Part shown: positions 5,887 to 40,643 of the stretch, in pieces
Layout of the letters: each line of letters begins with the position of its first letter
How positions within the stretch are numbered: position 1 is the stretch's first letter
Source of the DNA: a virus
Strand: one strand, 5' to 3'
Virus record (IMG/VR): IMGVR_UViG_3300049484_000177
Location: 34,384 to 98,383 of that record
Length of the DNA: 64,000 nt
The notes under the pieces: generated by a model
The model's database searches: none
Seen by the model: only the letters and a program-made list of their open reading frames with translations
Told to the model about the DNA's origin: nothing
Made by a program: the position numbers and the translations under genes

Positions 5887-6073
5887 GAACCGAAACCAAA
5901 CTTCAAAGCCTTGGGGCCAGGCTCCCCGAATTTCGGGGCTTGGAAGAAGGGTTCGGGTTCCGGTCGGGGAATCCGAGAGTCCCGTAAACGGGGACGTGGT
6001 GGGTTTGGTGGGGTCCGTCTTGTGGGGAAGGAAACATTCCCCATTGTAACTATTTGTGGCGAGGAGTGATTGC

Positions 6074-6556: not shown

Positions 6557-6570
6557 ATGGAGGCTAATCA

Positions 6571-6975: not shown

Positions 6976-6983
6976 GGGGATAG

Positions 6984-7373
6984 GTGATGGGTTGGTCCCT
7001 CCTACTTGGGGTAATCCTCATATTGTACATTCTTGAACTAATCCACGATCTGAGGATGAGGAACAGGTCACCCAAACCAGTACACACCATAAAGTGGAAG
7101 TCGGTAGGAGATGAAAGACCTAGACATATGGGATTAACAACTCGGGTATCCATCAAATTGTCCGAAGAGGGAAAAGGGAAACGTTGGCTTGCTGCTACGT
7201 TAACAACGAATACACCAGATGGCGTGGCCGTTATTCGTAGGGCTGGTTGGTGTCATCCTCCTGCAAGTATACTAGTTGTACGCATAACTTCCGACTGTCC
7301 AGTTGAACTACTGGATGCAGCGGTTGAAGCGGGTTACTACGTTGTTGGCAAACCAATAGACAAAAGGATCTAA
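6984..7373 (+). CDS. hypothetical protein with N-terminal hydrophobic helix
   Basis: Operon-packed ORF; true start uncertain. Confidence 0.55.
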   Translation: MMGWSLLLGVILILYILELIHDLRMRNRSPKPVHTIKWKSVGDERPRHMGLTTRVSIKLSEEGKGKRWLAATLTTNTPDGVAVIRRAGWCHPPASILVVRITSDCPVELLDAAVEAGYYVVGKPIDKRI

Positions 7374-7376
7374 CCA

Positions 7377-8441
7377 ATGCGAATCAATCGCGAGTATTTG
7401 CTCCACAAACTCCAACAGGTATCCCCTGGATTAGCAAGCCGGGAAATTGTTGAACAGTCCGCATCGTTTGTGTTCAATGAAGGTTCTATAGCTACATTCA
7501 ACGATGAGGTACTGTGTATTGCCGATCTTGAATGTGATATTGTAGGGGCTGTGCATGCAGCTCCACTGAGCAGTCTCTTATCGAAGCTGGCAGAAGATGA
7601 ATTGGACATTTCATCTAATGGGTCAGAGTTGCTCGTCAAGGGCAAAAGAAGCCGATCTGGCATTAGGATGCAGAAGGACATACTTCTGCCTATCTCCAGC
7701 GTCGAGCTGCCAGACGATTCATCATGGTCTGATCTTCATGGTGAGTTTGTGGAGGCACTAACCATCGTTGAGGGATCGGCATCGAAGGATGATTCCACCT
7801 TCAACCTTACCTGCATCCATGTCAGTCCCAAATATCTCGAAGCCTGCGATGGTTACCAACTCACCCGATACAAACTGAAGACCGGTATAACTAACGAATG
7901 CCTCATCAAACGGGACGCAGCGAAGTCCCTCATTGGATCATCAGTCAATCAGGTCAGCGAAGGTAAGAATTGGATTCATTTCAGGGGCAAGGAGATTCGC
8001 ATATCCTTCCGCAAGTGGATTCAGGACTACGTTGATCTTAGTCAGCTCATCAGTGCACGCGGGCAAAAGACAACACTGCCGGGAGGGTTAGCTGAGGCTG
8101 TGGACAAGGCTGAAATATTCTCGGCCGACAATTCGGTTAGGAATGAGGTCACAGTACAAATCAGACAGGGAAGGCTGAGACTGAAGGGTGAGGGTGGCCA
8201 CGGGTGGTACGAGGAACGAAAGAAGATCGAGTACACTGGTGAGCCCATCTCTTTCATGATCTCGCCCAAGCTGTTAACTGAGATCACCAAACGAACGAAT
8301 GACTGTGAAATCACTAGGGGCTGTTTGAGAATCGATGCAGGCAAGTTCATCTTTGTGGCAGCACTTGGTGAGATAGAGGAAAAGGAAGAGGTAGTAGCCG
8401 AACAGGAAGAGACACAGGGACAAGCAGAGGAGCAAGAATGA
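7377..8441 (+). CDS. dnaN: DNA polymerase III beta-like sliding clamp
   Basis: 354 aa; MRINREYLLHKLQQV start; LTCIHV...ACDGYQL matches the beta-clamp LxGV...ATDGHRL pattern. Confidence 0.8.
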   Translation: MRINREYLLHKLQQVSPGLASREIVEQSASFVFNEGSIATFNDEVLCIADLECDIVGAVHAAPLSSLLSKLAEDELDISSNGSELLVKGKRSRSGIRMQKDILLPISSVELPDDSSWSDLHGEFVEALTIVEGSASKDDSTFNLTCIHVSPKYLEACDGYQLTRYKLKTGITNECLIKRDAAKSLIGSSVNQVSEGKNWIHFRGKEIRISFRKWIQDYVDLSQLISARGQKTTLPGGLAEAVDKAEIFSADNSVRNEVTVQIRQGRLRLKGEGGHGWYEERKKIEYTGEPISFMISPKLLTEITKRTNDCEITRGCLRIDAGKFIFVAALGEIEEKEEVVAEQEETQGQAEEQE

Positions 8442-12821: not shown

Positions 12822-13037
12822 ATGTTAGTGCTATCGAGGAAACGGGGAGAATCGATAATCATTGGGGATGGCATCAAGATCGTCATTGTTGACGTCCGGG
12901 GAGACAAAGTTCGCTTAGGAGTTCAAGCGTCACCAGAAATCCCAGTTCACAGGGAAGAGGTTTACAATGCCATTCAGAGGGAGAAACAAGCCAATACCAA
13001 ATGTGGTGAGGGTTGGTCAGGTAGCCTTTTATTATGA
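12822..13037 (+). CDS. csrA: carbon storage regulator CsrA
   Basis: [15 protein letters not shown]...[16 protein letters not shown]. Confidence 0.95.
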
Positions 13038-26869: not shown

Positions 26870-27111
26870 TCACTGCCAAAGAATTCCTCAAGCTAAAGGA
26901 TCAGCTAGAGAAACTCAAGGAGGAGTACCACCAAGCTCAAGGGGCTAGAGACAATCTACTAGCTAGACTGCAATCAGATCACCAATGTAACTCAACGGAA
27001 GAAGGTCAAAAGAAGCTCATGGAACTAGAGGAGCAAATACGGCATCTCTCAAAGAGCAGGGATTCAAAACTGTCCAGGTTTGAAAAGAAGTGGTCAAGTA
27101 AATTGAAGTAG
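26866..27111 (+). CDS. short coiled-coil protein (possible middle piece of split SbcC)
   Basis: Heptad-rich; directly follows SbcD. Confidence 0.7.
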   Translation: MITAKEFLKLKDQLEKLKEEYHQAQGARDNLLARLQSDHQCNSTEEGQKKLMELEEQIRHLSKSRDSKLSRFEKKWSSKLK

Positions 27112-27123
27112 GAGCCCTAGCAA

Positions 27124-27327
27124 ATGGCTGATGATATAATCACCAAGGATAATCTACGCAACTGGTACTGTCCCCATTGTAAAGAGTGGTTGGCATCGTG
27201 TGATGTCTCAGAGGGGCAAGGTGTATTTAACCAGCATCGCAAACATATAAAGTGTATGATCACAGCCAACGTAGATGTTGAATGGAGAGTATACCCAATC
27301 AACCTACAAACCGGTAAAGCGTTTTGA
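27124..27327 (+). CDS. small zinc-binding protein
   Basis: CPHC...H...C. Confidence 0.6.
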   Translation: MADDIITKDNLRNWYCPHCKEWLASCDVSEGQGVFNQHRKHIKCMITANVDVEWRVYPINLQTGKAF

Positions 27328-27365
27328 GTGTTCTGTTAGTGTTCCAACCCTAGAGGAGTCGTGGC

Positions 27366-27863
27366 ATGATGAGAACATTTGTGTTTGTGGTGGCGGCGTT
27401 TCTGCCGTCGGTAGCGTTCTGTCAGTCTGTAGGCGAAACCTACTCGCGGAGTGCAGCCTACCAAGCCCAACAACGAGCCAGTGATTCCGCTGGAAACGCT
27501 CTCCAGTGTAGGCTGAAGGCGGAGCAGTGGCGGGATTTAGCGGTTCCACCATTTCGGGCGATTGGTGACCTCATTATGTCGGAGGGCGACCAGCTTGTGG
27601 ATGACGGAGACAACGAGCGGTCGATGGGAGGTCCAGCGTGTGCGAGTGGTGAGGCGTTCTGGGCGTTAGAGATGTACTCGGATGCAGTACCGCCCTTCAA
27701 TGAGGCCACACTGGACTATGTTGCTGCCGAGGTCGATTACGACTGCGCCGCCGCCAAATACGTCGAGGCGGCTAGGGTATACAGGTCGGTTGCCCTATTC
27801 CTGATGGCGGTGGGTATGGAGACCGACGAAGTGGGGGTGATATTACCGGCGTGTGCGTGGTGA
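27366..27863 (+). CDS. predicted secreted helical protein
   Basis: Signal-peptide-like MMRTFVFVVAAFLPSVAFC; GAGGAG RBS. Confidence 0.65.
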   Translation: MMRTFVFVVAAFLPSVAFCQSVGETYSRSAAYQAQQRASDSAGNALQCRLKAEQWRDLAVPPFRAIGDLIMSEGDQLVDDGDNERSMGGPACASGEAFWALEMYSDAVPPFNEATLDYVAAEVDYDCAAAKYVEAARVYRSVALFLMAVGMETDEVGVILPACAW

Positions 27864-27989
27864 ACAATGAAAGCAACGAGGTCAGTATGTCCTGGCAATG
27901 TGTGTTGCTGCTAGTTGGTGCCGCAATCTGGCTAAGTTTCTTGGCTGGATGGTACGTGCGAGACAGTCGAACAATGGGAGAGACGACAA

Positions 27990-28336
27990 TGCCGGATGAA
28001 GTTCTGACCGTGGGCGATCTGGTTGTTGGTATGAATGTGACGGTGCTGGAGTGGGGGCCCCTTACTCAAATTGTCGATGATGTTTCTGTCGTGACTCAGA
28101 GTCGCGGTTTATGTGGCGATGTGTTGGTGGTCAAGGCAATAGACCTGCCGTACATCGTGGTGGAGGAACAAAAGTATTTCGGACGGATTTCCTTGGACAC
28201 CAGGAAAGCGACGCTGATGAAGCTCACCGACGAGTACATGGCGGCCCTGAAACCTGACCAGCCCGCGAAGCGAATGAAACTCACTGATGAGCCTATTTCG
28301 CTGGGACCAGAATTGGAGATGGAATCAACCCCATGA
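27990..28336 (+). CDS. hypothetical protein
   Basis: GGAG RBS before MPDEV; an upstream start would add a TM segment. Confidence 0.55.
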
Positions 28337-28470
28337 CGTTCACCATCAACACACTCTCTGTCCGCGAGGTCCAGCCAGACGGCACGCTGGGGACAGAGTT
28401 GCTGGAGTCACCCAGAGAAGAAGACTTCTGGAAGTGGATCGAACCCGACGAGGAGCAAAGCAATGGCTGA
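28333..28470 (+). CDS. small hypothetical protein (45 aa)
   Basis: Read manually: MTFTINTLSVREVQPDG...; ATGA overlap. Confidence 0.5.
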   Translation: MTFTINTLSVREVQPDGTLGTELLESPREEDFWKWIEPDEEQSNG

Positions 28471-28765
28471 CGAACGAACTCCGGGCCAAGTGGCATATGA
28501 TGTGTTCATGCGTTATGTACTGGGTGACCTTTCGGAATTTGCGGTACGGGCGCAAGCAACACCCAAGGTGCGCGAGGCGTGGGAGGTCGCTGCGAGGGCG
28601 GTCAGAGACAATCAACGGGTCGAGTGCCGGGAACTGCTGGAGACAGCCGTGAATGCGTTTGAGAGTGGTCACCAGTCGATAGAGGGAACTACCGTCTGGT
28701 GTCACGGACAGGTGACTCGGGATTGGCTGCAAAGGGCGAAGGAGGTGATGGATGGCAACGAATAG
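28463..28765 (+). CDS. hypothetical protein
   Basis: GAGGAG RBS; TPGQVAYD motif. Confidence 0.65.
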   Translation: MADERTPGQVAYDVFMRYVLGDLSEFAVRAQATPKVREAWEVAARAVRDNQRVECRELLETAVNAFESGHQSIEGTTVWCHGQVTRDWLQRAKEVMDGNE

Positions 28766-29087
28766 TCTACCTGACGGCTGGGAAGCAACGATTGTTGGTC
28801 AGCCGTGCATGATGTGCCGAAGGAAAGATACTGAGATCGAGCAGCTAAGAGAGGAGTTGAAACGCTCAGTCGATAGTCTGAGTATGCTGGACATTGCAGC
28901 CCGATCCGATGGGCTGCTACCGTCCGATTTTAAGGCTGAGATCGAGACGCTGCGAGATGTCATTAGGTTCGCTCTGTCCCACGTCGTTGCGCGAAACGCC
29001 GGAACTCTCAACGATCCGTTTTCCTATCTCTGGCAGAAAGACTGGGATGAGTTTGAGCGAATGGCGAAGGAGGTGACTGGTGAGTGA
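28752..29087 (+). CDS. hypothetical protein
   Basis: GGAGGT RBS. Confidence 0.65.
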   Translation: MATNSLPDGWEATIVGQPCMMCRRKDTEIEQLREELKRSVDSLSMLDIAARSDGLLPSDFKAEIETLRDVIRFALSHVVARNAGTLNDPFSYLWQKDWDEFERMAKEVTGE

Positions 29088-29256
29088 ACTGACTTGCCCA
29101 CACTGCGGAATACCGATTGAATCGGAGCGGGACATCATCACGTGCCCACGATGTGGTCGCGAAGGATGCGACGTTGCGAGAGGGTGTATGCCAGCGGGAA
29201 GGAATTGCCTATGCCCGGAATGTGAAGAAGGAGAGGGAGGTGACGAAAATGAGTGA
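29080..29256 (+). CDS. small Cys-rich zinc-finger protein (58 aa)
   Basis: Read manually: CPHC, CPRC, CPEC; AGGAGGT RBS. Confidence 0.6.
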   Translation: MSELTCPHCGIPIESERDIITCPRCGREGCDVARGCMPAGRNCLCPECEEGEGGDENE

Positions 29257-29827
29257 GCTAGCGTCGGTATGGTCTCAGAAGTTGGAGATCAGACGACTGA
29301 AAAAGAAGCTCGACGAGTACGAGCAGGCGACACGCGTAGCCTATTTAGAACCCTGCGGCGACGAACGGCATTGTGCGTGCGTACCGCTACTACGAGTCGA
29401 GATAGATCGCCTGCGGCATGAGAACGAGTATCTGCAGGGTGACGAGTACGGCGCGGCGCTGAAGGTGACCGCAGAGGCTCTTGACACAGAGCGGAAGCGT
29501 TTGGATTGGATCTTTGAGTGGTGCATCATCGATCCTGGAGAGGAGCACTATACGCCAGAAAATCGTGAGCAGATCGACGAGCTGATGGCGACCAGTGGGC
29601 CAGACCAGGGGACCGTCCGCAAGTCAATAGAGGACTATGAAGCTGGTCGGTGGAAAACAGCGGAGCAGCTCGTAGATGAATTGAGGTCGAAAACAGAAAC
29701 CGAAAAACTGTGCTCAACATGCGGTGGTTCTGGTTACACTCAATCCGATGGTGGCGGTGCGGTTTTGTGTCGCGACTGCGGGGGTATCACCGATCAGCGT
29801 CTGCGGCGTGAAGCGGGAGGTGAATGA
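29249..29827 (+). CDS. mosaic hypothetical protein with C-terminal DnaJ-like Zn finger
   Basis: GGAGGT RBS; CSTCGGSG...CRDCGG. Confidence 0.65.
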   Translation: MSELASVWSQKLEIRRLKKKLDEYEQATRVAYLEPCGDERHCACVPLLRVEIDRLRHENEYLQGDEYGAALKVTAEALDTERKRLDWIFEWCIIDPGEEHYTPENREQIDELMATSGPDQGTVRKSIEDYEAGRWKTAEQLVDELRSKTETEKLCSTCGGSGYTQSDGGGAVLCRDCGGITDQRLRREAGGE

Positions 29828-29976
29828 TGTTCGCGAGGTTGTTGTGCTGGATGTTTGGCCATAGGTACAGCACTATTAGTCGTTGGGAGAATGAACGCAG
29901 CCAATGGGGCTACCGTGAGTGCGAAAGGTGTGGACACTGCGAGTCATGGCAGCATGACGGTGGAAGGGGTTTTTGA
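29824..29976 (+). CDS. DUF1660-like small protein
   Basis: Read manually: LLCWMFGH...CERCG. Confidence 0.6.
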   Translation: MMFARLLCWMFGHRYSTISRWENERSQWGYRECERCGHCESWQHDGGRGF

Positions 29977-29986
29977 CTGACACGGC

Positions 29987-30096
29987 TGCGGCGGCGTGGC
30001 GACGTACACGCAGGCATTTCGGAGCTTACCACAAAGCCAGAGTTACCTCCAATATCTCTGGCCGGTAAAGGATTCCGTTCGACTCGGAACCACGCA
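29987..30096 (+). ncRNA. degenerate tRNA-like element
   Basis: D-like arm GCGTG/CACGC; T arm TTCCG-TTCGACT-CGGAA; imperfect acceptor TGCGG/CCACGCA. Confidence 0.5.
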
Positions 30097-30136
30097 CTGA
30101 GTAGTGTGTCTTGTTTCAATTAACATGAGGTGCAAT

Positions 30137-30447
30137 ATGTTTCAGCTTAGCCTGGAAGACATGCGGTCGTTGTGCGGCGGAAAGTCGCACTCGTTTGAGA
30201 TCGGTAAGGCGTATCTGATTTTCGTACGGTGACGATGCACTATACGAGACGTGTGGTTGCCGTGACGGACAGTGACGTGGTTCTTGAAGACGCAGCGTGG
30301 ATCGCAGATACAGGGAGGTACGCCAACTCACTATCGGAAGGTGTGCTCTCGGAAGTCGAGCCATATCCAGGGTGAGTGGCGGTTTGTCGAGGTGGCATGA
30401 TCGACTTCGCGGAGTGAACATTTTCACTGCCGAGGAATCAGAAATGA
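30137..30447 (+). pseudogene. disrupted DUF6948-like (Sm-like) gene
   Basis: FEIGKAYLI|RTVTMHYT...LEDAAWIADTGRY; frameshift near 30220; in-frame TGA at 30373 and 30415. Confidence 0.7.
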
Positions 30448-30530
30448 ATCAAGCATTTTTGAGAACCGGATTTGATATGTCGTGGTCGCGGTCGCGGTCG
30501 TGGTCGTGGTCGTGGTCGTGGTCGGGGTAA
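30444..30530 (+). CDS. Ser-Trp/Ser-Arg repeat micropeptide (28 aa)
   Basis: MNQAFLRTGFDM(SW/SR)7SG; ATGA-coupled to the pseudogene. Confidence 0.55.
   Translation: MNQAFLRTGFDMSWSRSRSWSWSWSWSG
30480..30527 (+). repeat. hexanucleotide tandem repeat (TCGYGG x7 plus TCGGGG)
   Basis: Directly visible. Confidence 0.95.
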
Positions 30531-30558
30531 CTCCTACCCGCAGCGCTGGAGGTATAAA

Positions 30559-30768
30559 ATGATTGTTGTCATTCGAGCATTCAATAAACAAGGATACAAC
30601 AAAGATATCCTGGTGATGAGCGAACACCAGATACATCGGAGTGATAATCGGATAAAGTCACCTCTGTTGAGCACTCTTTCTGGGCTAATTGGAGTGGGTG
30701 CTGCCATCATACCTACTGATTTTCCAGAAATGGAACGTTTTGAAGTAGTGATCAAAACGGAATCGTGA
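30559..30768 (+). CDS. hypothetical protein
   Basis: GGAGGT RBS before MIVVIRAF. Confidence 0.55.
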   Translation: MIVVIRAFNKQGYNKDILVMSEHQIHRSDNRIKSPLLSTLSGLIGVGAAIIPTDFPEMERFEVVIKTES

Positions 30769-30778
30769 AGGATAAACC

Positions 30779-31348
30779 ATGAGCAACATGAATATTCGAT
30801 CATCACTAGACAAAGCTAATTTCGACTATCAACGATCGCTGAAGGCAGTTGAGGAGGAGCAAACCAGGATACAGCAATTCCAACAATCCCTAGCCGACTG
30901 CCAGACAGCGGTTTCTATCGTTCAAACCGTGGCTCAGTCCATCGAGCAAGCCGTCCACAATAAGATAGCGGTCGTCGTGAGTAACTGCTTGGAGGCTATC
31001 TTCGACGATCCTTACACCTTCAAGATCACCTTCGAGCGGAAACGAAACCGAACAGAGGCCCAGCTACTCTTCACTCGCAACGGCATGGACGTTGATCCTA
31101 TGACCGCTGCGGGTGGGGGTGCTGTGGACGTAGCTGCCTTCGCTCTTCGGGTGGCGTGCCTCACAATCCAGAAGCATCTCCAGCAGGTCCTCATCTTGGA
31201 CGAGCCGTTTCGTTTTGTTAGTCGTGAATTTAGACCCAGGATACGTGCTTTAATCGAAAGTCTATCGCGGGACCTTGGTATTCAGTTCCTAATTGTGACG
31301 CACATGGACGTCCTCCGAACGGGCACCGTGGTCACCATAGGAACCTGA
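30779..31348 (+). CDS. sbcC: SbcC/Rad50-like ATPase, C-terminal half
   Basis: Signature-like AGGGAVDVAAFALR, Walker B LILDEPF, IVTH. Confidence 0.9.
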   Translation: MSNMNIRSSLDKANFDYQRSLKAVEEEQTRIQQFQQSLADCQTAVSIVQTVAQSIEQAVHNKIAVVVSNCLEAIFDDPYTFKITFERKRNRTEAQLLFTRNGMDVDPMTAAGGGAVDVAAFALRVACLTIQKHLQQVLILDEPFRFVSREFRPRIRALIESLSRDLGIQFLIVTHMDVLRTGTVVTIGT

Positions 31349-31689
31349 CTGTCCATCCCGCCCCTACCTACTCACCCAAGCATACCCCTCCCTTAGTAGG
31401 TCACGGTCTCCCCAAAGGTAGCACGAAATGGACGGGCTGTTCCCCTTCCCCACATTTCCACGAACACGGGAGCCCTCCCGTCCAATCCTTCCCCGTGGGC
31501 ATAGGTGGCTTGCACAGGACACCGGGTCTGGGGGAGGTTGTGTGGTCCCGTACACAAGAGACCCCCGAATCGATTCTAGGGGCATCCTGGTGGGTTTGGT
31601 GGGACTCCCCCTTCCGGGGAGTAGCCATCCCAAGAGGCCCCCAAAGTAGCTATTTATTGACCACGGAACAATTCTGGGGATTCCAACCG

Positions 31690-32340
31690 GATTGGACTAC
31701 ACCTAAAGGCATATGGAGCCTAAACTTGCCATGGGCAAGGACGCCCCGCGGGGGACCGGCAGTGAGCCGGGGGTGGCAGGAAGCCGCCTCAATGCTCTTT
31801 GGCAACACGGGCTTGGGGGTCGATGAGGGATGCAAATCGCCCCACCCCAGCCCACGAACATTACGCAAAACTGGTCGAGAAGCGCGGCTGCTAATCACAG
31901 GTTCCTCCAAGGCCCTTTCAGGTCCCGGCAAGACCGGGCATAGCTAGGAAACCCGGAGAGAAGAGGACAGCCGGTCGAGCCCAGGGTGGTGCAAAAGATC
32001 CACTGCAACGCGAACCAGAAGTAGCGACGGGTCCCGAGCGGATCATGGAAACTGGATTTCCCTTCCCTAGTATCTCTTGCTAGTGCCGCTCGCGGAACGT
32101 AGGGTCGTCAAGACCCCAAAGAAGGTTGCCAAGCAACTGCACTGTAGTCCCTCTAGTCCAGGTGGGTGCAGTTGGACAGGGCATGATGCCACGTATTTAG
32201 CCATCCCTAACGTTGGTTCGTTAACTCAATTTGCCGACAGCGTCGAGCGGCAGGACGCCGCGATGGGAGGATGGCACCTGTGGATAAACGAAGGGTGGAC
32301 CCGCTCCGGTCCACCCCGTACGGCATTGGTAGCCGTGCCT
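31690..32340 (+). ncRNA. candidate large structured ncRNA (~650 nt)
   Basis: No credible ORF; more than 10 helices, including long-range TTGGCAAC/GTTGCCAA and GGACTACA/TGTAGTCC. Confidence 0.6.
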
Positions 32341-32371
32341 AGTGAGTTACCATTTTCACAGGGAGCGAAAC

Positions 32372-32785
32372 ATGCAGACTATGATGTTGGATCTACAGAA
32401 TGCACAGATGCTGCTAAACACCATACAGGAGACTGGCCGAGCAGCCGAGGTTGATTGGGTCAACCAAACGATCCGCGTCTTGTCAGAGGTCAAGACACAC
32501 CCAACCAAAGTGTTGTCGTCCGGCCCGATGACATACCAGGATATCCTGCTGGAGATTTCCGAACGGGGAATCACCCGCACGGGCATCAAGCCGAAGGTCA
32601 CCAACCACAAGATCGAATGTGGGCTGTGCAACACCACTATAACGAGTGTTGAGGCAGCCATCGATGCGGGTTGGTTACCATCCTACTACGATGGGGACGA
32701 CGAGGTGCTCGGCCCGGTGTGCCCAGAGTGCACCAAATCCAAACTGGAAATAGACCCAGAAACGGAGGAGTATTTCCTGCGATAA
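32372..32785 (+). CDS. hypothetical protein with C-terminal Zn ribbon
   Basis: GGGAGCGA RBS; CGLC...CPEC. Confidence 0.75.
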   Translation: MQTMMLDLQNAQMLLNTIQETGRAAEVDWVNQTIRVLSEVKTHPTKVLSSGPMTYQDILLEISERGITRTGIKPKVTNHKIECGLCNTTITSVEAAIDAGWLPSYYDGDDEVLGPVCPECTKSKLEIDPETEEYFLR

Positions 32786-32793
32786 TGAAATGA

Positions 32794-32877
32794 ACTGCTC
32801 GAATCCGAGGGGCTGCGGAACAGCCCTGAGGACCCGTGCAGTACGGGAGTTAGTAAACCATAGGTGAGGAGCGAACG
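32794..32877 (+). promoter_or_regulatory. repeated two-hairpin leader, copy 1
   Basis: ACTGCTCGAA-hairpin-CCCGTGCAGTACGGG-AGTTAGT...GGAGCGAACG-ATG. Confidence 0.85.
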
Positions 32878-33261
32878 ATGAAGACCACAGTAGAGAGAAC
32901 AATGAACCGAGCGATGACGGTTGGCGATCTGCTTTCCGAATTGGATGGCTTGCCGATGGACGCCCCGGTTGTGTTTGTGTGCGACTATGGAGACTACTGC
33001 CATACTCAACAAGCATTGCCGGTCAGCAGCATCGAGGTTGTCACAGCCGAACGGTTGTCAGACTCGGGGTACAGCAAATCGGGTGTTGAGCTGGTGGATG
33101 GACACAGTAATGTGTTCTACTGCCCCACCTGCGACGAGGAGTATGATGGGTTAGTGTGCTGCCCGAAATGCAAAACGGCATGTGTTACGGAGGATGGAAC
33201 CCCGGCAGAAACGGAAGAGGACGGGAGGAAAGTAGTGGTCCTGAAAATGGAACGGGACTAA
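32878..33261 (+). CDS. hypothetical protein with Zn ribbon
   Basis: MTVGDLLSEL motif; CPTC, CPKC. Confidence 0.75.
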   Translation: MKTTVERTMNRAMTVGDLLSELDGLPMDAPVVFVCDYGDYCHTQQALPVSSIEVVTAERLSDSGYSKSGVELVDGHSNVFYCPTCDEEYDGLVCCPKCKTACVTEDGTPAETEEDGRKVVVLKMERD

Positions 33262-33307
33262 CGGAAAGAAAGTTAGGGGAACTTTGGAAAAAGGGATTCC
33301 TAACTAG

Positions 33308-33336
33308 TTGACTCCCTACACCCAGTCGTTAGTATT
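33308..33336 (+). promoter_or_regulatory. sigma70-like promoter
   Basis: TTGACT-16 nt-TAGTAT with an A-rich upstream tract. Confidence 0.4.
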
Positions 33337-33513
33337 GTGAATGACCGGGAAGGGAGTAGAAGGTCGGAATTTTCTCCCACGGACGGGAGCGGATTGAAAC
33401 CAGCCAGACCAGGCTGGTAGGAAAGGGAAAGAAAGGGGGCTGATCGGGAAGGGTTGTACTCTTCCGATTACGACAGCCTCCCACAGTGTAGGTTCTCCAC
33501 AAGGAGCGATGGT

Positions 33514-33891
33514 ATGAAGACTCTCGAATCGTTTGATTTCGGATCGCGTGCGGTCAGCAGCAAGAAGTACAATTGGGACGAGATCCTGAGCGGCGAGATC
33601 GTGGTGCTCGAAGCCGGAAAGGACTTCGAGTGCAAGCCGGGAGGTATCCGGCTGACCGTGAAGAAGAACGCCGAGAAGTTGGGGTTGAAGGTGCGGTCGA
33701 AGGTGGTCGATGGCAATGTGGTCATCCAAGCCTTCAAGCCGACCGAGGAGGAGAAAGCCTTCTCCGCCGCAGCCAAGGGCAAGAAGGGTCGCAAGATGGG
33801 TGACGAAGACGAGGAGATCGAGGACGTCGAGGAGGAAGAGGACGAGGTCGATGTCGAGGAGAAGAAACCGACTCCCCGACGACGCAAGTAG
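33514..33891 (+). CDS. stand-alone YDW-type domain protein with acidic/basic tail (copy 2)
   Basis: KYNWDEILSG...GKDF...VIQA; strong GC3 codon bias. Confidence 0.8.
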   Translation: MKTLESFDFGSRAVSSKKYNWDEILSGEIVVLEAGKDFECKPGGIRLTVKKNAEKLGLKVRSKVVDGNVVIQAFKPTEEEKAFSAAAKGKKGRKMGDEDEEIEDVEEEEDEVDVEEKKPTPRRRK

Positions 33892-33926
33892 GTCCGTAAC
33901 TGGAACTGGACGGCGGGACGTACAAG

Positions 33927-33954
33927 AGGGGTGGGTGCAAACCCACCCCTTTTT
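33927..33954 (+). terminator. Rho-independent terminator
   Basis: AGGGGTGGGT-GCAA-ACCCACCCCT-TTTT. Confidence 0.9.
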
Positions 33955-33978
33955 GCGTCTTGTAGACACAGGACAAAG

Positions 33979-34065
33979 TGCTCGAACACAATGGGCTGTA
34001 GGTTAGCTCATTGTGCCCGTGCATTTCGTGCGGGAGTTAGTGACACAGGTTTTAGGAGCGAAACG
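33979..34065 (+). promoter_or_regulatory. repeated two-hairpin leader, copy 2
   Basis: TGCTCGAA-hairpin-CCCGTGC..GTGCGGG-AGTTAGTGACACAGGT..GGAGCGAAACG-ATG. Confidence 0.85.
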
Positions 34066-35265
34066 ATGAAGACTATGAAGAGGGAAGAGTTGGTTGCAAA
34101 GCGGGTAGGCAATGCAACGGTCGTCATGTCAGAGGCATTGGCTGATGAAACCAACGCCGAGGCATCCAGTATCACGCCCCAAGCCAAGTTCAAGATGGCA
34201 CGGGACGAGATGAACAAGAGCCTCATCGAACGGCATGACGAGATTGATTTGATACTGGTCGCTTTGCTGGCTGGGGAAAACCCGCTGCTCGTGGGTCCTC
34301 CTGGCACAGGCAAATCGCTGCTCATGGATTCGCTGATGCGATGGATGAGCAACGGGACCAAGAAGTTCAGCATACTACTCTCCAAGTTCTCGATGCCGGA
34401 CGAGGTCTTTGGACCTATCGACATCAACGGACTGAAGGCGGGAAAGTATGCAAGGGTCACGGTTGGTCGGCTGCCCGAGGCTCACGTGGCATTCATTGAC
34501 GAGGTATTCAAAGCCTCGCCCGCCATCCTGAATAGCCTGCTAAAGGTCCTCAACGAGCATCTGTTTCCGATTGGTGATGGCACCGAAAAGAAATGCCCGC
34601 TCAGAGAGGCATTGGCTGCGAGCAACGAATGGCCCGATGCATTGGAGTTGGGAGCCCTGTTCGATAGGTTCCTGCTTCGGAAAACGGTCCACTATGTGAG
34701 CCGGATCGGGCGGCGACGGTTGCTGCGGGAACGGAATCACGAACCCGTATTCAGCCACACCATCTCCCCCAATGAGCTAGACAAGGCTCATGACGAGGCG
34801 ATGGGACTGGAGTTGAGCGATCGGGCTTACGAAGTGCTGGACGAGATTCTGGCTGAACTGAATAAGGCTGGAATCGACCCTGGCGATCGCCGGATGAAGA
34901 AGGCGATCAACATTGCTCGTGCTTATGCCTACCTACGAGGGTCGGCATCGGTCGAGCCGGTTCATTTGGAAGTGCTGAAGTATGTGCTGTGGGTGGACCC
35001 AGAGCAGGAGATGAAAGCACACAAGATCGTCTGCTCGCTTTCCAATCCGGTCGGGTCGAAGATCACGGAGTTGCTTATGCAGGCTGCTTCGGTCGTGGAC
35101 GTTAGTGTTCCCGAAGAGGCGGTAAGCAAGCTGCAGGACATTCAGAAGCAGCTCAAGGAACTTCCGGATCACGATCGGCGGGAGTTGGCGGTACGGTTCG
35201 TCGGCAACGAGATTAAAAAGCAGTACAAAAAGATCACGGGGCTGGACGAACAATCATTCGAGTAA
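34066..35265 (+). CDS. MoxR-family AAA+ ATPase (RavA-like)
   Basis: GPPGTGKS, FIDEVFKA, ASNE, ALFDRF. Confidence 0.92.
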   Translation: MKTMKREELVAKRVGNATVVMSEALADETNAEASSITPQAKFKMARDEMNKSLIERHDEIDLILVALLAGENPLLVGPPGTGKSLLMDSLMRWMSNGTKKFSILLSKFSMPDEVFGPIDINGLKAGKYARVTVGRLPEAHVAFIDEVFKASPAILNSLLKVLNEHLFPIGDGTEKKCPLREALAASNEWPDALELGALFDRFLLRKTVHYVSRIGRRRLLRERNHEPVFSHTISPNELDKAHDEAMGLELSDRAYEVLDEILAELNKAGIDPGDRRMKKAINIARAYAYLRGSASVEPVHLEVLKYVLWVDPEQEMKAHKIVCSLSNPVGSKITELLMQAASVVDVSVPEEAVSKLQDIQKQLKELPDHDRRELAVRFVGNEIKKQYKKITGLDEQSFE

Positions 35266-35354
35266 ACTGCTCGAACCTGACGAGCCTCATGGACGAGGCT
35301 CAGACGGCCCGTGCAGTACGGGAGTTAGTGACACAGGTATAGGGAGCGAAACGC
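35266..35354 (+). promoter_or_regulatory. repeated two-hairpin leader, copy 3
   Basis: Fills the whole stop-to-start interval. Confidence 0.9.
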
Positions 35355-36779
35355 ATGACTAAAGAAACACAAGAGGAACTACTCAAAATGCTCGACATTG
35401 GTCTTTCCGATGTTGGGGATGAGGAGTTATTGGCGGAGGGTCTGTCCTTCGACGAGTTTGGTCCCGAAGATAGGGAAGAGGAGCTATCCGAAACGGTTCT
35501 TCGACAGGATGATTGGGATCGAGCAGTAGGGGAGGAAGTTATGAGGCGGCACAGCTTAGGCGACGACGCTAAAGCTGTGGCTGACTTCCACAGCGCCTCA
35601 TACCATCTGTCACCAGAGCCTGCTGGCAAATGTATCAACAAACGTCGGCAGGAATTCATGGACACACTGATGGAATCTCCCGAGTACAAGCAGCTACACG
35701 AATCTACTCGCCAGAATCGTCTGGCTAGTGAGGTGGCTGCTGTACGGTTCACAAGGCAATACCAAGCCTTGGTAGAGAAGGATAAGAAGAATCCACCTGC
35801 CGGGATGGGATTGCCTGGTGAGGGAGAGGGAGAACCGGATGGGAACGTCCTAGTGGCGGTTGGTAAGGCTGTGCAAGGGGCACAGGAGGAAGTGGATCAG
35901 ATCGAAGATATGACTTCCGCCTTGGGTGGGGATATCGGTGGCTTGGGACAGGGCGACGCAGCCCAGTCCGCGAACATCGATAAGATCCGCGATACCTACG
36001 AACGTCTCCGCGGTAGCAAACGGCTGCGGGACATCTTCGAGCGTGCTGGGGCTTACATTCGATCAGCCAAAGGATTGCAGAAAAACAAGACCCAGCACGG
36101 ATTCGACGATATCGTAGGAGTGGAACAGGCCGGAGACGTAGGACGTCTGCTGGCTAGTGAGTTAGCCTACCTCGACGACCCTGACTTGGAACTGGATCTG
36201 CTTCGGCGGATCGTGGAGAACCAAGCCATGTGCCAACTGTACCAAGGGGTCGAGGCACAAATGAAAGGTCCGGTCGTAGTAGTGGTTGACGAAAGCGGGT
36301 CGATGGCTGGTGCACCAATCGCCAATGCGAAAGCATTAGCATTGGCAATGGCATGGATCGCCAAGCACCAGAAACGGTGGTGTGCGTTGGTGGGATTCTC
36401 CGGTGGCACCAGTGGGACGATGTGTGTACTGAAGCCGGGTAAATGGGACCAATCAGACTTGTTAGATTGGTTGGATCATTTCTACGGCGGAGGCACCACA
36501 TTGGATGTACCGCTCGATAAGCTGCCCAATGAGCACTGGGCAGCAATGGACCCCCCACGAGGGAAAACGGACGTAATCATGGTCACGGATGCTATGGTTA
36601 CGGCTCCTCAGCGGATGGTGGAGCAGTTCAACGCGTGGAAGGTGAAGGAAAAGGTTCGTTGCATCTCCATAGTCCTTGGCTCACGGGCTGGGGACCTAGA
36701 GAAGGTTAGCAACGAAGTACATTGCATTCCGGGGTTGACCGTGGATTGCACGGCGGCTGCAAGTTGTATGTCAATCTAA
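35355..36779 (+). CDS. VWA-domain protein (ViaA-like partner)
   Basis: MIDAS DESGSM, GGGT, VTDA. Confidence 0.9.
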   Translation: MTKETQEELLKMLDIGLSDVGDEELLAEGLSFDEFGPEDREEELSETVLRQDDWDRAVGEEVMRRHSLGDDAKAVADFHSASYHLSPEPAGKCINKRRQEFMDTLMESPEYKQLHESTRQNRLASEVAAVRFTRQYQALVEKDKKNPPAGMGLPGEGEGEPDGNVLVAVGKAVQGAQEEVDQIEDMTSALGGDIGGLGQGDAAQSANIDKIRDTYERLRGSKRLRDIFERAGAYIRSAKGLQKNKTQHGFDDIVGVEQAGDVGRLLASELAYLDDPDLELDLLRRIVENQAMCQLYQGVEAQMKGPVVVVVDESGSMAGAPIANAKALALAMAWIAKHQKRWCALVGFSGGTSGTMCVLKPGKWDQSDLLDWLDHFYGGGTTLDVPLDKLPNEHWAAMDPPRGKTDVIMVTDAMVTAPQRMVEQFNAWKVKEKVRCISIVLGSRAGDLEKVSNEVHCIPGLTVDCTAAASCMSI

Positions 36780-36796
36780 CCAGGAGGAGAGAAACT

Positions 36797-37006
36797 ATGA
36801 ATGAAAGGACCAAGCAGATCGAGGAGATTTTGAGACAGGTGAGGGAGGAGGGATTTCAAAACGGACTGGCTGAGGGGTATAGAGCAGCAGAGAGGATCGC
36901 TATTCTGTGGGGTGTCAATCACAAACTGAAGGTGCCTCATTCGGTGGAATGGCTGATTGATGAATCCCGCAAGGAATTGGAAAACCTGAAGATCAAACTG
37001 ACATAG
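36797..37006 (+). CDS. hypothetical protein
   Basis: AGGAGG RBS. Confidence 0.65.
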   Translation: MNERTKQIEEILRQVREEGFQNGLAEGYRAAERIAILWGVNHKLKVPHSVEWLIDESRKELENLKIKLT

Positions 37007-37011
37007 CAGAG

Positions 37012-37121
37012 GACGCCCGAAAGGGCGTAATGCCCTACGATTGGTTATGTTACCAATCGTAACCGTTCCAAGGCGGCATTCATACCTATGGGCTGGTAGG
37101 TACACAGGCGAGGAGCGAGAC
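37012..37121 (+). promoter_or_regulatory. multi-hairpin leader ending CACAGG...GGAGCGA
   Basis: ACGCCC-GAAA-GGGCGT and TACGATTGGT/ACCAATCGTA hairpins. Confidence 0.6.
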
Positions 37122-38237
37122 ATGAACAAGACAACGAAGAGAGCCAAGCACGTGCAGGCGAAGGAATTAACCGCCGGGCTGAAGGGCATGAAGTGGCTGG
37201 GGGTTGTGATCACGTGGAACAGTGGACCGGAGGGTGCTACCCACGGACACAGCAAGGTCATGAATGCTTTGGGCGTTGCTGGTCTGGATACGAAGTACGA
37301 GCGGGAACTGTTGCCGAGAAACGCCTTTCAACGGGCAGCTAAGAAGCTGTCCGACGAACGGATCATCGACGTCTTCCGCGAGGACGAACGGGAGTTAGTC
37401 TTCCAGTTCACACGGAAGCATTTGAATTCCCTACAGTGGGAATTCCGCAAGGAGACATTCGTCTCCCTGAACAAGAACACCGGCAAGGTCCTGTCGGACG
37501 ACAAAGCCATTGCATTGGAAGCACAGGCAGAGGTCGACAAGGCTATGGACCTTCGCACCAATGCGGACGTGACCCGCATAGTGAATCGGTTGTTCGAAGA
37601 CCACGCCGATCTGATCCCAATGCGGGATGCTGGTGGTGTGTATTTCGTGCCGCAAGAGCATTGCGGGTTTGTCGCGAGGGTCGAGACATTCCTAACTCAG
37701 CTCGGTGGGCGAATCGACCAGATCCCGGTGCCTGCTGGTACGGCTACTGGAGACCGCACGATCCAAAACGCGGTTAGTGCCACGATGGCGAAGCTGATTG
37801 AGGACCATATGGATGCGGTCAAGAAGTTCGAGCCTGCTACAAGGAAAGATACCATCCAACGGCAGGCGGACGAGATCAAGCACACCCGGATCAAGATCGA
37901 AGCGTATGCTCATTATCTCGGTGAGCGGCAGAGCGAACTGATCAAGAAGATCAGCGAGGCTAACAAACTCCTGAAGGAGCAAGTGGAAGCGATCGGCGGC
38001 GGAGCCGAAGCTTACTCCGAGTATGATTGGAATACCATACTCGATGGCAAGGTCCACAAACTGGTCCAGGGAGAGGACTACTTGGCAACGACCAGAACTT
38101 GCTTGGTTATGGCAAGGGCCCATGCGAAGAAGCAGGGCATGCGAATCCGGTCGCGGATCATGGACGAGGGGAAGGCGATCGTGATGCAGGCGGTTCCGAT
38201 GAAAGAGGGAGACAAAGAGGAGAGCGACGAGGAATAG
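37122..38237 (+). CDS. DUF6744-like protein fused to C-terminal YDW-type domain (copy 3)
   Basis: LGVVITW...MRDAGGVYFVP; EYDWNTILDG...GEDY...VMQA. Confidence 0.75.
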   Translation: MNKTTKRAKHVQAKELTAGLKGMKWLGVVITWNSGPEGATHGHSKVMNALGVAGLDTKYERELLPRNAFQRAAKKLSDERIIDVFREDERELVFQFTRKHLNSLQWEFRKETFVSLNKNTGKVLSDDKAIALEAQAEVDKAMDLRTNADVTRIVNRLFEDHADLIPMRDAGGVYFVPQEHCGFVARVETFLTQLGGRIDQIPVPAGTATGDRTIQNAVSATMAKLIEDHMDAVKKFEPATRKDTIQRQADEIKHTRIKIEAYAHYLGERQSELIKKISEANKLLKEQVEAIGGGAEAYSEYDWNTILDGKVHKLVQGEDYLATTRTCLVMARAHAKKQGMRIRSRIMDEGKAIVMQAVPMKEGDKEESDEE

Positions 38238-38328
38238 ACTGCTCGAACCTGATGGGGCTCCAATGAGCCCCTGATGGCCCGTGCATTCTGTATGGGAGTT
38301 AGTGACACAGGTATAGGGAGCGAAACGT
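38238..38328 (+). promoter_or_regulatory. repeated two-hairpin leader, copy 4
   Basis: 34 nt identical to copy 3 at the 3' end; fills the stop-to-start interval. Confidence 0.9.
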
Positions 38329-38631
38329 ATGCTAACAGACAAAGAGAGAGATCGTATCCTGCAAGAGCGGGATCACGCTGGGTTCATCCGGCACCCGGAG
38401 TTGTGGCCCAGAACCTTCTTCCTGCCAGTCATCAAGGCTGGCGGGGCTATTCGCGACGGAGCGGATGGTGTAATCACCGCCCTCTACGGGTTCAATGTGG
38501 TTGTCCATGTTAACCTGTTCCTATTGCAGCGGTCCGGTAAGACACTACTGCAAGCAGTGAATGAGGGAGCGAAGATCAGCCGTTACGAAACAGTGGAGGC
38601 TCTGGTTGCGGATGGATGGGAGGTGGATTGA
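38329..38631 (+). CDS. hypothetical protein
   Basis: Follows leader; ends YETVEALVADGWEVD. Confidence 0.8.
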   Translation: MLTDKERDRILQERDHAGFIRHPELWPRTFFLPVIKAGGAIRDGADGVITALYGFNVVVHVNLFLLQRSGKTLLQAVNEGAKISRYETVEALVADGWEVD

Positions 38632-38840
38632 TGACCTCATCCAAAGACGAGAGGATTTTCCGTGAGGCTTGTAATGGCTACGGATTCACCGAGGTGGAGC
38701 AATCCAGTGATGGACTCTATTGCACTGGTTGTATGATCATTCACAAGCGGCCGACGAAGATGTACTCAAACGGCCAGCGTGAAGTTCTATGCAAGACGCA
38801 GGTTATTAGACTCTACAATCCGGAGGAGGAGGTAGACTAA
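38631..38840 (+). CDS. hypothetical protein
   Basis: GGAGGT RBS, coupled. Confidence 0.65.
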   Translation: MTSSKDERIFREACNGYGFTEVEQSSDGLYCTGCMIIHKRPTKMYSNGQREVLCKTQVIRLYNPEEEVD

Positions 38841-39046
38841 TGGAGTTACATCACTACGTTGTCGTGATGCGGGTGAGGCCACGGCTGGCCGTATCGAAGG
38901 AGGAGGGAGCTTTCGACGTGATCGTTGATATAGGTGCGGTTAACGATCTATCGGCCCGGAAGGGCTCGATGGAGTTGGCCTGGTACAATGGCCATCTGGT
39001 GAACGAGATCAAATGTGTTAGCGTAGCAAAGGAGGACGAAGAATGA
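38840..39046 (+). CDS. hypothetical protein
   Basis: GGAGG RBS, coupled. Confidence 0.65.
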   Translation: MELHHYVVVMRVRPRLAVSKEEGAFDVIVDIGAVNDLSARKGSMELAWYNGHLVNEIKCVSVAKEDEE

Positions 39047-39228
39047 AGGACTGGATTATCTACTGCGATGCTACAAGGTTGCTGTGGGACGCGCAAGAGG
39101 ATGACAATGCTGGAGCTGTCAGTTCTAACTGGCAGCCGGTCACAAAGTCTCAGGCGATGAGATTCATCGCTGAGATGGAACACAGAGAGGGGTGGACGAG
39201 GGGCCATTGGAATGCCCCAAGGTTCTAG
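39043..39228 (+). CDS. hypothetical protein
   Basis: GGAGG RBS, ATGA overlap. Confidence 0.65.
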   Translation: MKDWIIYCDATRLLWDAQEDDNAGAVSSNWQPVTKSQAMRFIAEMEHREGWTRGHWNAPRF

Positions 39229-39247
39229 GGAGGACATGAAAACCGAA

Positions 39248-39349
39248 ATAACTGGGCTTGGATAGCCCAGTTATAGCTGTGGGGTGAGAGCCTACAGCCT
39301 GATGAGGTATCTCATACAGTTACTCAATCACAGGACAAAGGAGCGAGAC
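39248..39349 (+). promoter_or_regulatory. three-hairpin leader ending CACAGG...GGAGCGA
   Basis: ATAACTGGGCT/AGCCCAGTTAT, GCTGTGGG/CCTACAGC and TGAG/CTCA hairpins. Confidence 0.6.
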
Positions 39350-39754
39350 ATGGAAATGCCAAGGATTGAATTCGTGGTACGGGATTTCACGTCGTTCGAG
39401 TCAGCAGGGGAGATCGCAGAGGCGCTCAACTTGGAGCTACCTCACCTGAAGTTCTCCGCCACCTACCTCAACGTTTGGGATGTACACCTTCTCATCGACG
39501 GGAGCATCGTAGTGCAGCAGAATTGCTCACACGAGCATCCTTGGGGGAGATGCTGTGTGAACCTGAATACCAAGTCGGTGTCGAGATCAACTCTCTGTTC
39601 ACTACTCACCCGTGCCGAACGGGCGGGTTGGGATGTTATTGTCGGAGGGGTGAGGCTGATCGAATACCCCGAGATGGTTTGGAGGAGACTGGCGTTGTGG
39701 ACCCAATTCCCCAAGTACAACGTCGAGAAGCATTACCATCTGATCAAGAAGTAG
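39350..39754 (+). CDS. hypothetical protein
   Basis: AGGAGCGA RBS. Confidence 0.7.
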   Translation: MEMPRIEFVVRDFTSFESAGEIAEALNLELPHLKFSATYLNVWDVHLLIDGSIVVQQNCSHEHPWGRCCVNLNTKSVSRSTLCSLLTRAERAGWDVIVGGVRLIEYPEMVWRRLALWTQFPKYNVEKHYHLIKK

Positions 39755-40020
39755 TAAACCAAAACACCGACCGGGATTTCCAACACGATGTCATCGAAGG
39801 TCCACCGCTAAGTGCTCGTGCTTGGCTGATCTTTCATCCCGGTCGTTGTCGGGTCTGGGTGAACTCCAGATCCCTGATGATGGCAGTTCTTCCGAAGATA
39901 GGTTGGAGGGATTGCGTTTCGTTCTACAACTAACAACTATGAAGGGAGGTGATGCCTTTGCACTACTACAACAACCTGCGGAAGTTAGCCAACAATAGCT
40001 GACCACCAACGGCGGCGGCC

Positions 40021-40104
40021 AGGGGCGAGCGATGACCCTAGTGCGGTGGACGCTTGGCATCGTCCCATTTGACAACTGCGACTAGTGGCTCGCTCGCCCC
40101 TTTT
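40021..40104 (+). terminator. long hairpin terminator or processing site
   Basis: AGGGGCGAGCGA/TCGCTCGCCCCT plus T-tract. Confidence 0.65.
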
Positions 40105-40187
40105 ACCCTGACAAGAAGACATCATAGTGCGAGTCTATGACAGGGTACTGTTTCGTGTTTCAATACTTGCTACATAAGGACATTACC

Positions 40188-40472
40188 ATGAGTAGCGAGC
40201 GGGTGTTTGTGTCGAGAGGAGAAGGGGACGAGTTGCAGTTGAGTCTCAATGGAGCCACCATGTCTATCAGTGAACTTCGAGTGCGTCCGATGAGTAACTG
40301 GAAGACACCTCACCAGCTACTAGCAAAAGGAGGAGCGTCAATCGCTCTGACCGACGCCCAACTGATGCAGGTAGTGGGTGAGTACCTTCGTTACCGAATC
40401 AACGAGAGCTGCTCCCACAGCCAAAAGCAGGTAGGGTACGAATTCACCTGCACTGTGAAGAGAGGGGATTGA
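40188..40472 (+). CDS. hypothetical protein
   Basis: AAGGA RBS. Confidence 0.65.
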   Translation: MSSERVFVSRGEGDELQLSLNGATMSISELRVRPMSNWKTPHQLLAKGGASIALTDAQLMQVVGEYLRYRINESCSHSQKQVGYEFTCTVKRGD

Positions 40473-40643
40473 ATGGATAGCGAACAAACAGACATCACAG
40501 GAGCCGCTATCGTTGAGGTCCGGGTACGGGCTGATGGTAGGGTCCTGTGGGTCAACGTAGACGGGATCTGCAGGCTGCGGGTCTGCCAGATCGATCAGAT
40601 TGAAGTGGAGGACGAACGAAGCATACCAATCAGTGACAACTGA
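40473..40643 (+). CDS. small hypothetical protein (56 aa)
   Basis: Read manually: MDSEQTDITG...LWVNVDGICRLR. Confidence 0.6.
   Translation: MDSEQTDITGAAIVEVRVRADGRVLWVNVDGICRLRVCQIDQIEVEDERSIPISDN

Follow-up and report, generated by a model that had tools for sequence, protein, structure and literature searches.

Long-range masking of a ribosome-binding site (RBS), together with translational coupling, is found at the coat and replicase genes of phage MS2. Between the early genes of T7, ribonuclease III (RNase III) sites such as R1.1 are cleaved in a way that leaves a protective 3' hairpin upstream and can free the downstream RBS. It is established that internal loops can restrict cutting by RNase III to a single strand, so that such a protective 3' hairpin is left (PMC1540722). 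Repeated start-associated or intergenic motifs of phages, such as SAS/ESAS and PeSL, were described more than ten years ago. SAS and ESAS of Cluster K mycobacteriophages were reported in 2011 (PMC3203893), and their function was still unshown in 2025 (PMC12699233). In the 17-bp inverted-repeat arms of ESAS, the departures do not support RNA pairing, and DNA-binding sites were favored (Pope et al., PMC3203893). PeSL elements of T4-type phages have a sigma-70-like -35/-10 promoter between a stem-loop, which is a terminator, and the Shine-Dalgarno sequence (SD) (PMC2839356, PMC4122927). Here we describe a repeated element located directly upstream of four genes in a 64,000-nucleotide (nt) stretch of viral DNA, hereafter called the window. 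The window is the 3' two-thirds of the 98,383-bp IMG/VR virus record IMGVR_UViG_3300049484_000177 (positions 34,384 to 98,383), which has direct terminal repeats and an estimated completeness of 78%. The element is very probably a functional RNA structure of some kind. The case is unusually clear, as it combines RNA covariation, homologues in phages that otherwise share little, and testable competing folds, one of which hides the RBS.

Results

The four copies of the element could be aligned over 87 to 94 nt, each ending at an ATG (Table 1), in agreement with the places and the order of parts given in an earlier, sequence-only reading of this DNA. In every copy, about 40 nt separate a long hairpin from the start codon, and this 40-nt linker is 89 to 97% identical among copies 2 to 4. 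Copies 3 and 4 exactly occupy the gaps between stop and start codons, as previously noted (TAA at 35263-35265 to ATG at 35355, and TAG at 38235-38237 to ATG at 38329), and copy 1 begins 9 nt past the end of gene 32372-32785. With a covariance model of the whole element, the four copies scored 92 to 99.5 bits, and the next best match in the window reached 11 bits. The junction motif GGGAGTTAGT with its degenerate tail gave 4 matches, compared to 0.05 expected. The whole 98,383-bp record contains four copies only, in a single orientation. The element had been described as unnamed, and no Rfam match was indeed found: using Rfam 15 at gathering scores, the sole match in the window was a tRNA, and at E-values up to 1, none overlapped the elements in 32200-39500.

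The structure first proposed consisted of a hairpin 1 followed by a hairpin 2. On this structure, 95% of the cells in the alignment of the four copies pair, compared to 31 to 52% in slid controls. Seven pairs are altered on both sides, all of them in or beside hairpin 1, and the tolerated G-U pairs noted earlier are present on the + strand. However, the conserved architecture is not made of two separate hairpins. Hairpin 1 is only the tip of an irregular hairpin of about 50 nt, and this one long hairpin, which uses half of hairpin 2, is the conserved unit. Its basal helix, which the sequence-only reading had not noted, is formed by ACUGC in the TGCTCGAA box and by GCAGU, a segment previously assigned to hairpin 2 as its 5' arm and loop. 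From base to tip, this fold (fold A) comprises the 5-bp ACUGC/GCAGU helix, CG/CG, a loop with AA opposite CC, CC/GG, a tandem G.A loop and a variable apical stem.

The hairpin family comprises nine sequences from four contigs: the four copies of this phage, one sequence each from L263 and L012, and three from L312. On six sequences, 94% of 102 cells pair in fold A, compared to 27 to 42% in slid controls, and both partners are altered in 12 of 17 pairs. For the basal helix alone, evaluated on all nine sequences, 90% of cells are paired (22 to 41% in slid controls), and double-sided changes are seen in 7 of 10 pairs. The same basal pairs are made with other letters in L263 (ACAGC/GCUGU), L012 (AAAAC/GCUUU, with one mismatch) and L312c (GUAGCGUG/CGCGCUGC). 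The unpaired AA opposite CC is invariant (9/9 sequences). The tandem G.A/A.G loop is present in 8/9 and is replaced in copy 2 by two A-U pairs, giving a fully Watson-Crick version. Fold A is the predicted minimum-energy fold of copy 1, of L263 and of the three L312 spacers; in the latter, which are predicted to fold at -58 to -65 kcal/mol, extra basal pairs start directly after the stop codon. The hairpin base of L263 is 80% identical to those of copies 3 and 4, whereas the flanking proteins are merely 35 to 47% identical. Moreover, the upstream stop codon lies at, within about 10 nt of, or inside the hairpin in seven of the nine copies, the exceptions being copy 2 and L012. The compensatory changes among the four copies and the homologues from three other contigs support the earlier proposal that selection acts on a single-stranded structure. 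The long hairpin is an ancient, conserved unit of the element.

L263 was found by searching 22 viral loci that encode MoxR relatives (40 to 50% identity), which yielded one element, directly upstream of MoxR. This element follows a homologue of the DUF6744 protein (35% identity, E 1e-47), whose stop codon falls inside it. L012 and L312 were found with another model, which was constructed on the 60 nt at the 5' end; the E-values of such home-made models are rough. In the metagenome contig L012, the element is again part of the leader of MoxR (26 bits, E 9e-5), and GACACAG, which is similar to CACAGGACAAAG, is located about 8 nt before the 5' box. The 51-kb phage record L312, which is 100% complete, contains three copies 800 to 870 nt apart (25, 21 and 17 bits), and no MoxR module was seen in the 12-kb stretch examined. 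Its region 4540-7850 is a six-gene operon with a TTGACA promoter at the head and a U-tract terminator at the end. The three L312 hairpins sit in spacers between consecutive cistrons of one operon.

Several other matches were discarded. Those of the pattern scans in viral and genome contigs were mostly due to chance, and those of the model in L050, L114 and L119 were due to chance or a consequence of the search pattern. L435 (16 bits) is a doubtful member. Among 151 Planctomycetota genomes, four single matches (25 to 29 bits) fit the 5' box without a basal-helix partner and were judged to be chance. In L020 (9820-9960) and L275, MoxR is preceded by a near-consensus sigma-70 promoter and by a leader with two GC-rich hairpins; no sequence likeness to the element was detected in these two leaders.

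A second fold of the same RNA (fold B) consists of hairpin 2 (CCCGUG/YRYGGG) and of a UGCUC/GAGCG stem over the SD of the next gene. Since both parts use the same nucleotides as the basal helix, folds A and B are mutually exclusive. With the full leader, the predicted energies of fold B in copies 2 to 4 are -32.6, -32.9 and -36.1 kcal/mol, compared to -29.5, -26.3 and -24.4 kcal/mol for fold A, and in copy 1 the two folds are predicted to be near equal. In copies 2 to 4, the predicted probability that the GAG of the SD is unpaired is at most 0.07. The earlier statement that TGCTC can pair with GAGCG over the RBS is supported: the two are complementary in all four copies, and the pairing belongs to the predicted minimum-energy fold of three copies, but it is invariant and lacks covariation of its own. 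Within the four copies, hairpin 2 has variants with G-U pairs, and in L263 two of its pairs have undergone compensatory exchange (GC to AU and UA to CG). At column 46, G is replaced by A in L263, and both alternative partners change along with it.

The 3' end of the element also occurs as a separate, start-associated box. CACAGG..GGAGCGARAC followed by ATG marks the starts of six + strand genes in the interval 32362-39340, compared to 0.17 expected, and copy 1 has a near-variant. The block at 32.3-39.4 kb contains seven element copies when the degenerate copies c0, c37 and c39, absent from the sequence-only reading, are included, and the full long hairpin is present in four of them. In c0, two hairpins are enclosed by an 8-bp stem, CCUGUGGA/UUCACAGG, that runs into the SD. 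In c37, which has the 5' box ACCGUUCCAA and the 3' box CACAGG..GGAGCGAGAC, UGCUC is replaced by CGUUCC, which yet complements GGAGCG of the SD. The principle by which fold B closes, an SD-occluding stem, is therefore kept in diverged copies with different sequences. The 12-mer CACAGGACAAAG occurs twice: at 33967-33978 it is joined to the 5' box that opens copy 2, and at 39329-39340 to the SD of gene 39350. L312 has a box of its own just before the start codon, TAGATTCTGGAG, which is unrelated and present in five exact copies (0.03 expected), three of them with the hairpin. A tandem GTCGACGCG repeat is also contained in the L312 spacers. As the hairpin is common to both phages and the boxes are unrelated, the hairpin is the shared old part, to which each phage adds its own start-associated box.

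We then considered signals for transcription. No sigma-70-like promoter was detected inside the elements by a consensus scan, whose consensus may not be that of the host; the 5' end of copy 2 is overlapped by one weak promoter-like site, TAGACA-18-CACAAT. Canonical promoters do appear in expected places, namely at 33308-33335 and where the leaders of L020 and L312 begin. In none of the four copies is either hairpin followed by a T run. A reading as intrinsic terminators was thus rejected for lack of a U run; true terminators with T runs are present at 33928-33957 and where the L312 operon ends, the former not having been noted in the sequence-only reading. The likeness of TTAGTGACAC..TATAGGGAG to SP6/T7 promoters was also considered, but 9 of the 13 linker positions are different in copy 1, which argues against a polymerase promoter. 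Antitermination of the nut/boxA type, suggested by the resemblance of UGCUC to boxA, was rejected in view of four copies per 5.5 kb with unconserved hairpin loops. The region 33262-33978, between the gene of copy 1 and copy 2, appears as a self-contained, moron-like inserted unit. A 12-nt fragment of the 3' box, CACAGGACAAAG, lies between the terminator of this unit and copy 2.

The phage encodes a typical CsrA outside the repeat, which we consider a candidate trans-acting partner. CsrA was found in 9/28 phage records searched (8/27 besides this phage). It is encoded in all three searchable records that carry the element and in 6/25 MoxR-phage records without it, a weak association (Fisher one-sided p of about 0.03, a post hoc hand calculation). 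Two GGGAG motifs are conserved in the linker at a spacing of 23 nt, the SD being the second of them, and GGA is present in 5/9 apical loops, as counted by eye and post hoc. The GGA density of the copies is 21 to 46 per kb, little above the 20 per kb of the window, and three searched relatives are CsrA positive without having the element. Because of these relatives and of a GGA density near background, CsrA stays a candidate only. A 420-nt RNA candidate beside csrA was rejected as a CsrB-like sponge, as its loops show no GGA enrichment. The region 31948-32371, upstream of the first degenerate copy, comprises about 420 nt without a convincing open reading frame (ORF); it has a strong hairpin at 32292-32317 and a GGA content of 31 per kb, compared to 20 per kb for the window.

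The only sequencing run that contains the window is a freshwater-sediment metagenome, the probable source of the DNA; no RNA run is listed as containing it. Between about 31 kb and 77 kb of the genome the genes lie on the + strand, whereas those outside this interval lie on the - strand. The region 27000-40500 of the window is a block of higher G+C content (52 to 58%, compared to about 45 to 48% for the genome) with a strong positive GC skew, and all repeat copies and the MoxR module lie within this block of about 13 kb. DUF6744, MoxR and vWA genes form a three-gene phage module found in two circular orders, D-M-V and M-V-D, at about 35 loci (L005-L088 and L260-L281). In L278, a homologue of the 127-aa zinc-ribbon protein is located directly upstream of MoxR. 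The closest MoxR relatives are 64 to 74% identical, and some sources label MoxR relatives as Gemmataceae, which is a hint at the host only. A metagenome scan gave relatives of at most 56% identity among the matches listed. Neither the phage collection nor pattern scans of viral contigs yielded a DNA-level relative, and with blastn, GenBank phages gave no match. A short protein segment, roughly ..YxWxxILxG.., recurs in three genes of the window (6381-6442, 33556-33620 and 38020-38081). The first and the last of these, the latter at the DUF6744 C terminus, are 73% identical at the DNA level, and the N terminus of the acidic 125-aa protein resembles the segment by eye.

Table 1. Features of the window: element copies, signals and genes (aa, amino acids)
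Feature	Position	Strand	Description
Copy 1	32794-32880	+	93.6 bits; long hairpin 32794-32842, linker, SD GGAG, ATG 32878 of the 127-aa zinc-ribbon-like protein
Copy 2	33977-34068	+	92.4 bits; long hairpin 33977-34025, linker, SD, ATG 34066 of MoxR
Copy 3	35266-35357	+	99.5 bits; long hairpin 35266-35317, linker, SD, ATG 35355 of the vWA protein
Copy 4	38238-38331	+	95.3 bits; long hairpin 38238-38287, linker, SD, ATG 38329 of the 100-aa protein
Degenerate copy c0	32270-32374	+	Before gene 32372-32785; z -3.4; 3' box CACAGGGAGCGAAAC
Degenerate copy c37	37062-37124	+	Before the DUF6744 gene (ATG 37122); rank 5, 11.2 bits
Degenerate copy c39	about 39290-39352	+	Before gene 39350-39754; short hairpin, AGTTA, CACAGGACAAAGGAGCGAGAC, ATG
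Sigma-70-like promoter	33308-33335	+	TTGACT-16-TAGTAT; head of the inserted unit with gene 33514-33891
Intrinsic terminator	33928-33957	+	GC stem and T run; closes the inserted unit, directly upstream of copy 2
csrA	12822-13037	+	71 aa; PF02599, 83 bits; candidate trans-acting partner, outside the repeat
137-aa ORF	32372-32785	+	
Zinc-ribbon-like protein	32878-33261	+	127 aa; downstream of copy 1
Acidic protein	33514-33891	+	125 aa; C terminus very acidic
MoxR AAA+ ATPase	34066-35265	+	PF20030, 174 bits; downstream of copy 2
vWA protein	35355-36779	+	Downstream of copy 3
69-aa ORF			Listed between the vWA gene and the DUF6744 gene
DUF6744 protein	37122-38237	+	Upstream of copy 4
100-aa ORF	38329-38631	+	Downstream of copy 4

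Discussion

Our preferred but tentative reading, to which we give a probability of roughly 0.4, is that the element may be an intercistronic mRNA switch or processing signal, combining the long hairpin with an alternative fold that would mask the SD. An intercistronic mRNA element is suggested because the copies are co-directional with transcription and because compensatory and G-U pairing is seen on the + strand. Moreover, the hairpin adjoins or contains the upstream stop codon and, in L312, lies inside a defined operon. The element would then be a cis-acting part of a polycistronic phage mRNA with two exclusive folds. Fold A would most likely serve processing and stability as a signal of the RNase III type, or else dock a protein. 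In fold B, the basal helix would be broken, the freed 3' strand would form hairpin 2, and the freed UGCUC would bury the SD of the next gene together with GAGCG. The downstream cistron would be translated only while the 5' box is kept off the SD, which could be achieved by cleavage, by locking in fold A, or by the cover of a ribosome terminating at the adjacent stop codon. The analysis shows the repeat, the two pairings with their covariation, the homologues, and that the element has neither promoter nor terminator; action as RNA in vivo, cleavage and translational control by the switch are what we infer. The record search detected no RNase III gene of the phage's own, so that cleavage would need the host enzyme.

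Several points weigh against this reading. The hairpin of this phage is predicted to have a structure of the RNase III type, as is the longer one inside the L312 operon, but with only about 17 bp over about 23 rungs, it is marginal for that enzyme. The model names no ligand, although the invariant AA/CC and G.A loops suggest a specific one. A terminator precedes copy 2, whose 5' box may therefore not be transcribed from upstream at all. The UGCUC/GAGCG pairing never varies among the four copies and thus proves nothing alone, the conservation of GAGCG being expected anyway for an SD. Hairpin 2 is not kept in L012, and neither L263 nor L312 shows evident occlusion of the SD by this box; fold B is thus mainly a feature of this phage, and SD occlusion is at best a lineage-specific addition. 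Finally, all of this comes from a family of nine sequences on four contigs.

Among the other explanations, a specific protein ligand would account for the invariant unpaired bases, and the element could be the operator of an RNA-binding translational repressor. Phage CsrA is the named candidate: a dimer on the two GGGAG motifs would shut four genes together and, in some copies, would also bind the GGA of the apical loop. The occurrence of CsrA in this phage and in both other searchable carriers, set against its frequency in non-carriers, fits this proposal, as do the apical-loop GGA motifs counted by eye. CsrA-positive relatives without the element do not fit, the GGA density is little above that of the window, any SD contains GGA anyway, and the proposal leaves the conserved AA/CC and G.A loops and four apical loops without GGA unexplained; we thus regard it as rather unlikely. 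A broader version seems more doubtful still. In a phage post-transcriptional regulon, the hairpin would dock a phage RNA-binding protein (again with CsrA as the candidate), and a bistable SD mask would time or balance MoxR, vWA, DUF6744 and their neighbors, the hairpin being reused elsewhere by unrelated operons, each with its own box. A simpler role would be that of a plain intercistronic stabilizer or insulator, which protects against 3' exonucleases with or without an RNase III cut and involves no switch, hairpin 2 and the anti-SD pairing being incidental. Indeed, the long hairpin is the only part conserved across phages and lies at, near or over the upstream stop in most copies, it is very stable in the L312 spacers, and a one-strand RNase III cut with a protective 3' hairpin is known (PMC1540722). 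Yet a simple stabilizer would need neither invariant loop nucleotides nor a linker so similar among copies 2 to 4, nor would diverged copies be expected to keep SD-occluding stems, and we find this explanation unlikely as well.

Explanations at the DNA level appear weaker. Repeated promoter-terminator modules could serve as homologous recombination sites that shuffle genes, as proposed for PeSL, whose order of parts, stem-loop and then SD and start, is the one seen here (PMC4122927). The two orders of the module genes over about 35 loci, the 12-nt fragment of the 3' box just before copy 2 and, circumstantially, the position of the hairpin after DUF6744 both here (copy 4) and in L263 would agree with such a cassette joint. 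It is nevertheless very unlikely, because the element has no sigma-70-like promoter, although relatives and the inserted unit use canonical ones, and no U-tract, and because the G-U pairs and the compensatory changes are indicative of RNA. A selfish or neutral palindromic repeat (REP, MITE or integron attC-like), spreading without a role for the phage, could also be multicopy in two phages, imperfectly palindromic and intergenic after stop codons. No tyrosine recombinase (PF00589) or Y1 transposase (PF01797) was found in the 78%-complete record, control searches being positive, and the attC core sites were unmatched, which led us to reject the attC and REP forms. In addition, all copies are co-directional with transcription and fitted exactly between stop and start, and their base is conserved across phages despite the divergence of the flanking proteins. 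A selfish origin is the most improbable of these explanations.

If the intercistronic mRNA reading is true, phages of uncultured hosts would have a further, new family of cis-regulatory RNA. The element would also offer a handle on how phages set relative gene expression within one transcript and, possibly, a target set for a phage-encoded CsrA.

Compared with the described systems, the element resembles SAS/ESAS in having two tiers. In both cases a short asymmetric box containing the SD lies a few bases before the ATG of many nonstructural genes, in one orientation. About half of the boxed genes of Cluster K phages also have an upstream inverted repeat with a variable spacer, which is comparable to the 4/7 copies with a long hairpin here. 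The consensus GGGATAGGAGCCC, found 3 to 8 nt before starts, is unrelated to CACAGG..GGAGCGARAC, so that placement and orientation are analogous only, and the host and the phage group differ. Furthermore, in contrast to the ESAS arms, the arms described here covary as RNA (12/17 pairs; basal helix, 7/10). With PeSL, the element shares repeated intergenic modules in which a stem-loop is followed by the SD and the start codon, clustered among small or accessory genes. The likeness to PeSL proposed in the sequence-only reading fails on their defining promoter, since none lies in the roughly 40 nt between hairpin and start. Without a sigma-70-like promoter, a U-tract, an integrase or a transposase, the element is not a PeSL.

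Two further parallels are found at the RNA level. T7 sites of the R1.1 type are likewise irregular intercistronic hairpins that span about two helical turns, contain conserved internal loops and recur on one polycistronic mRNA. There is no sequence relation to them, the hairpin here is short for RNase III and its cleavage hypothetical, and a competing SD-occluding fold is no general feature of T7 sites. At the MS2 coat-replicase junction, the masking strand lies within the upstream gene, whereas here it lies in the spacer just past the stop codon, copy 2 has no adjacent upstream gene, and coupling is hypothetical. As in MS2, an upstream segment that ribosomes pass or stop on would pair with the SD of the next gene, and translation of one gene could open the next.

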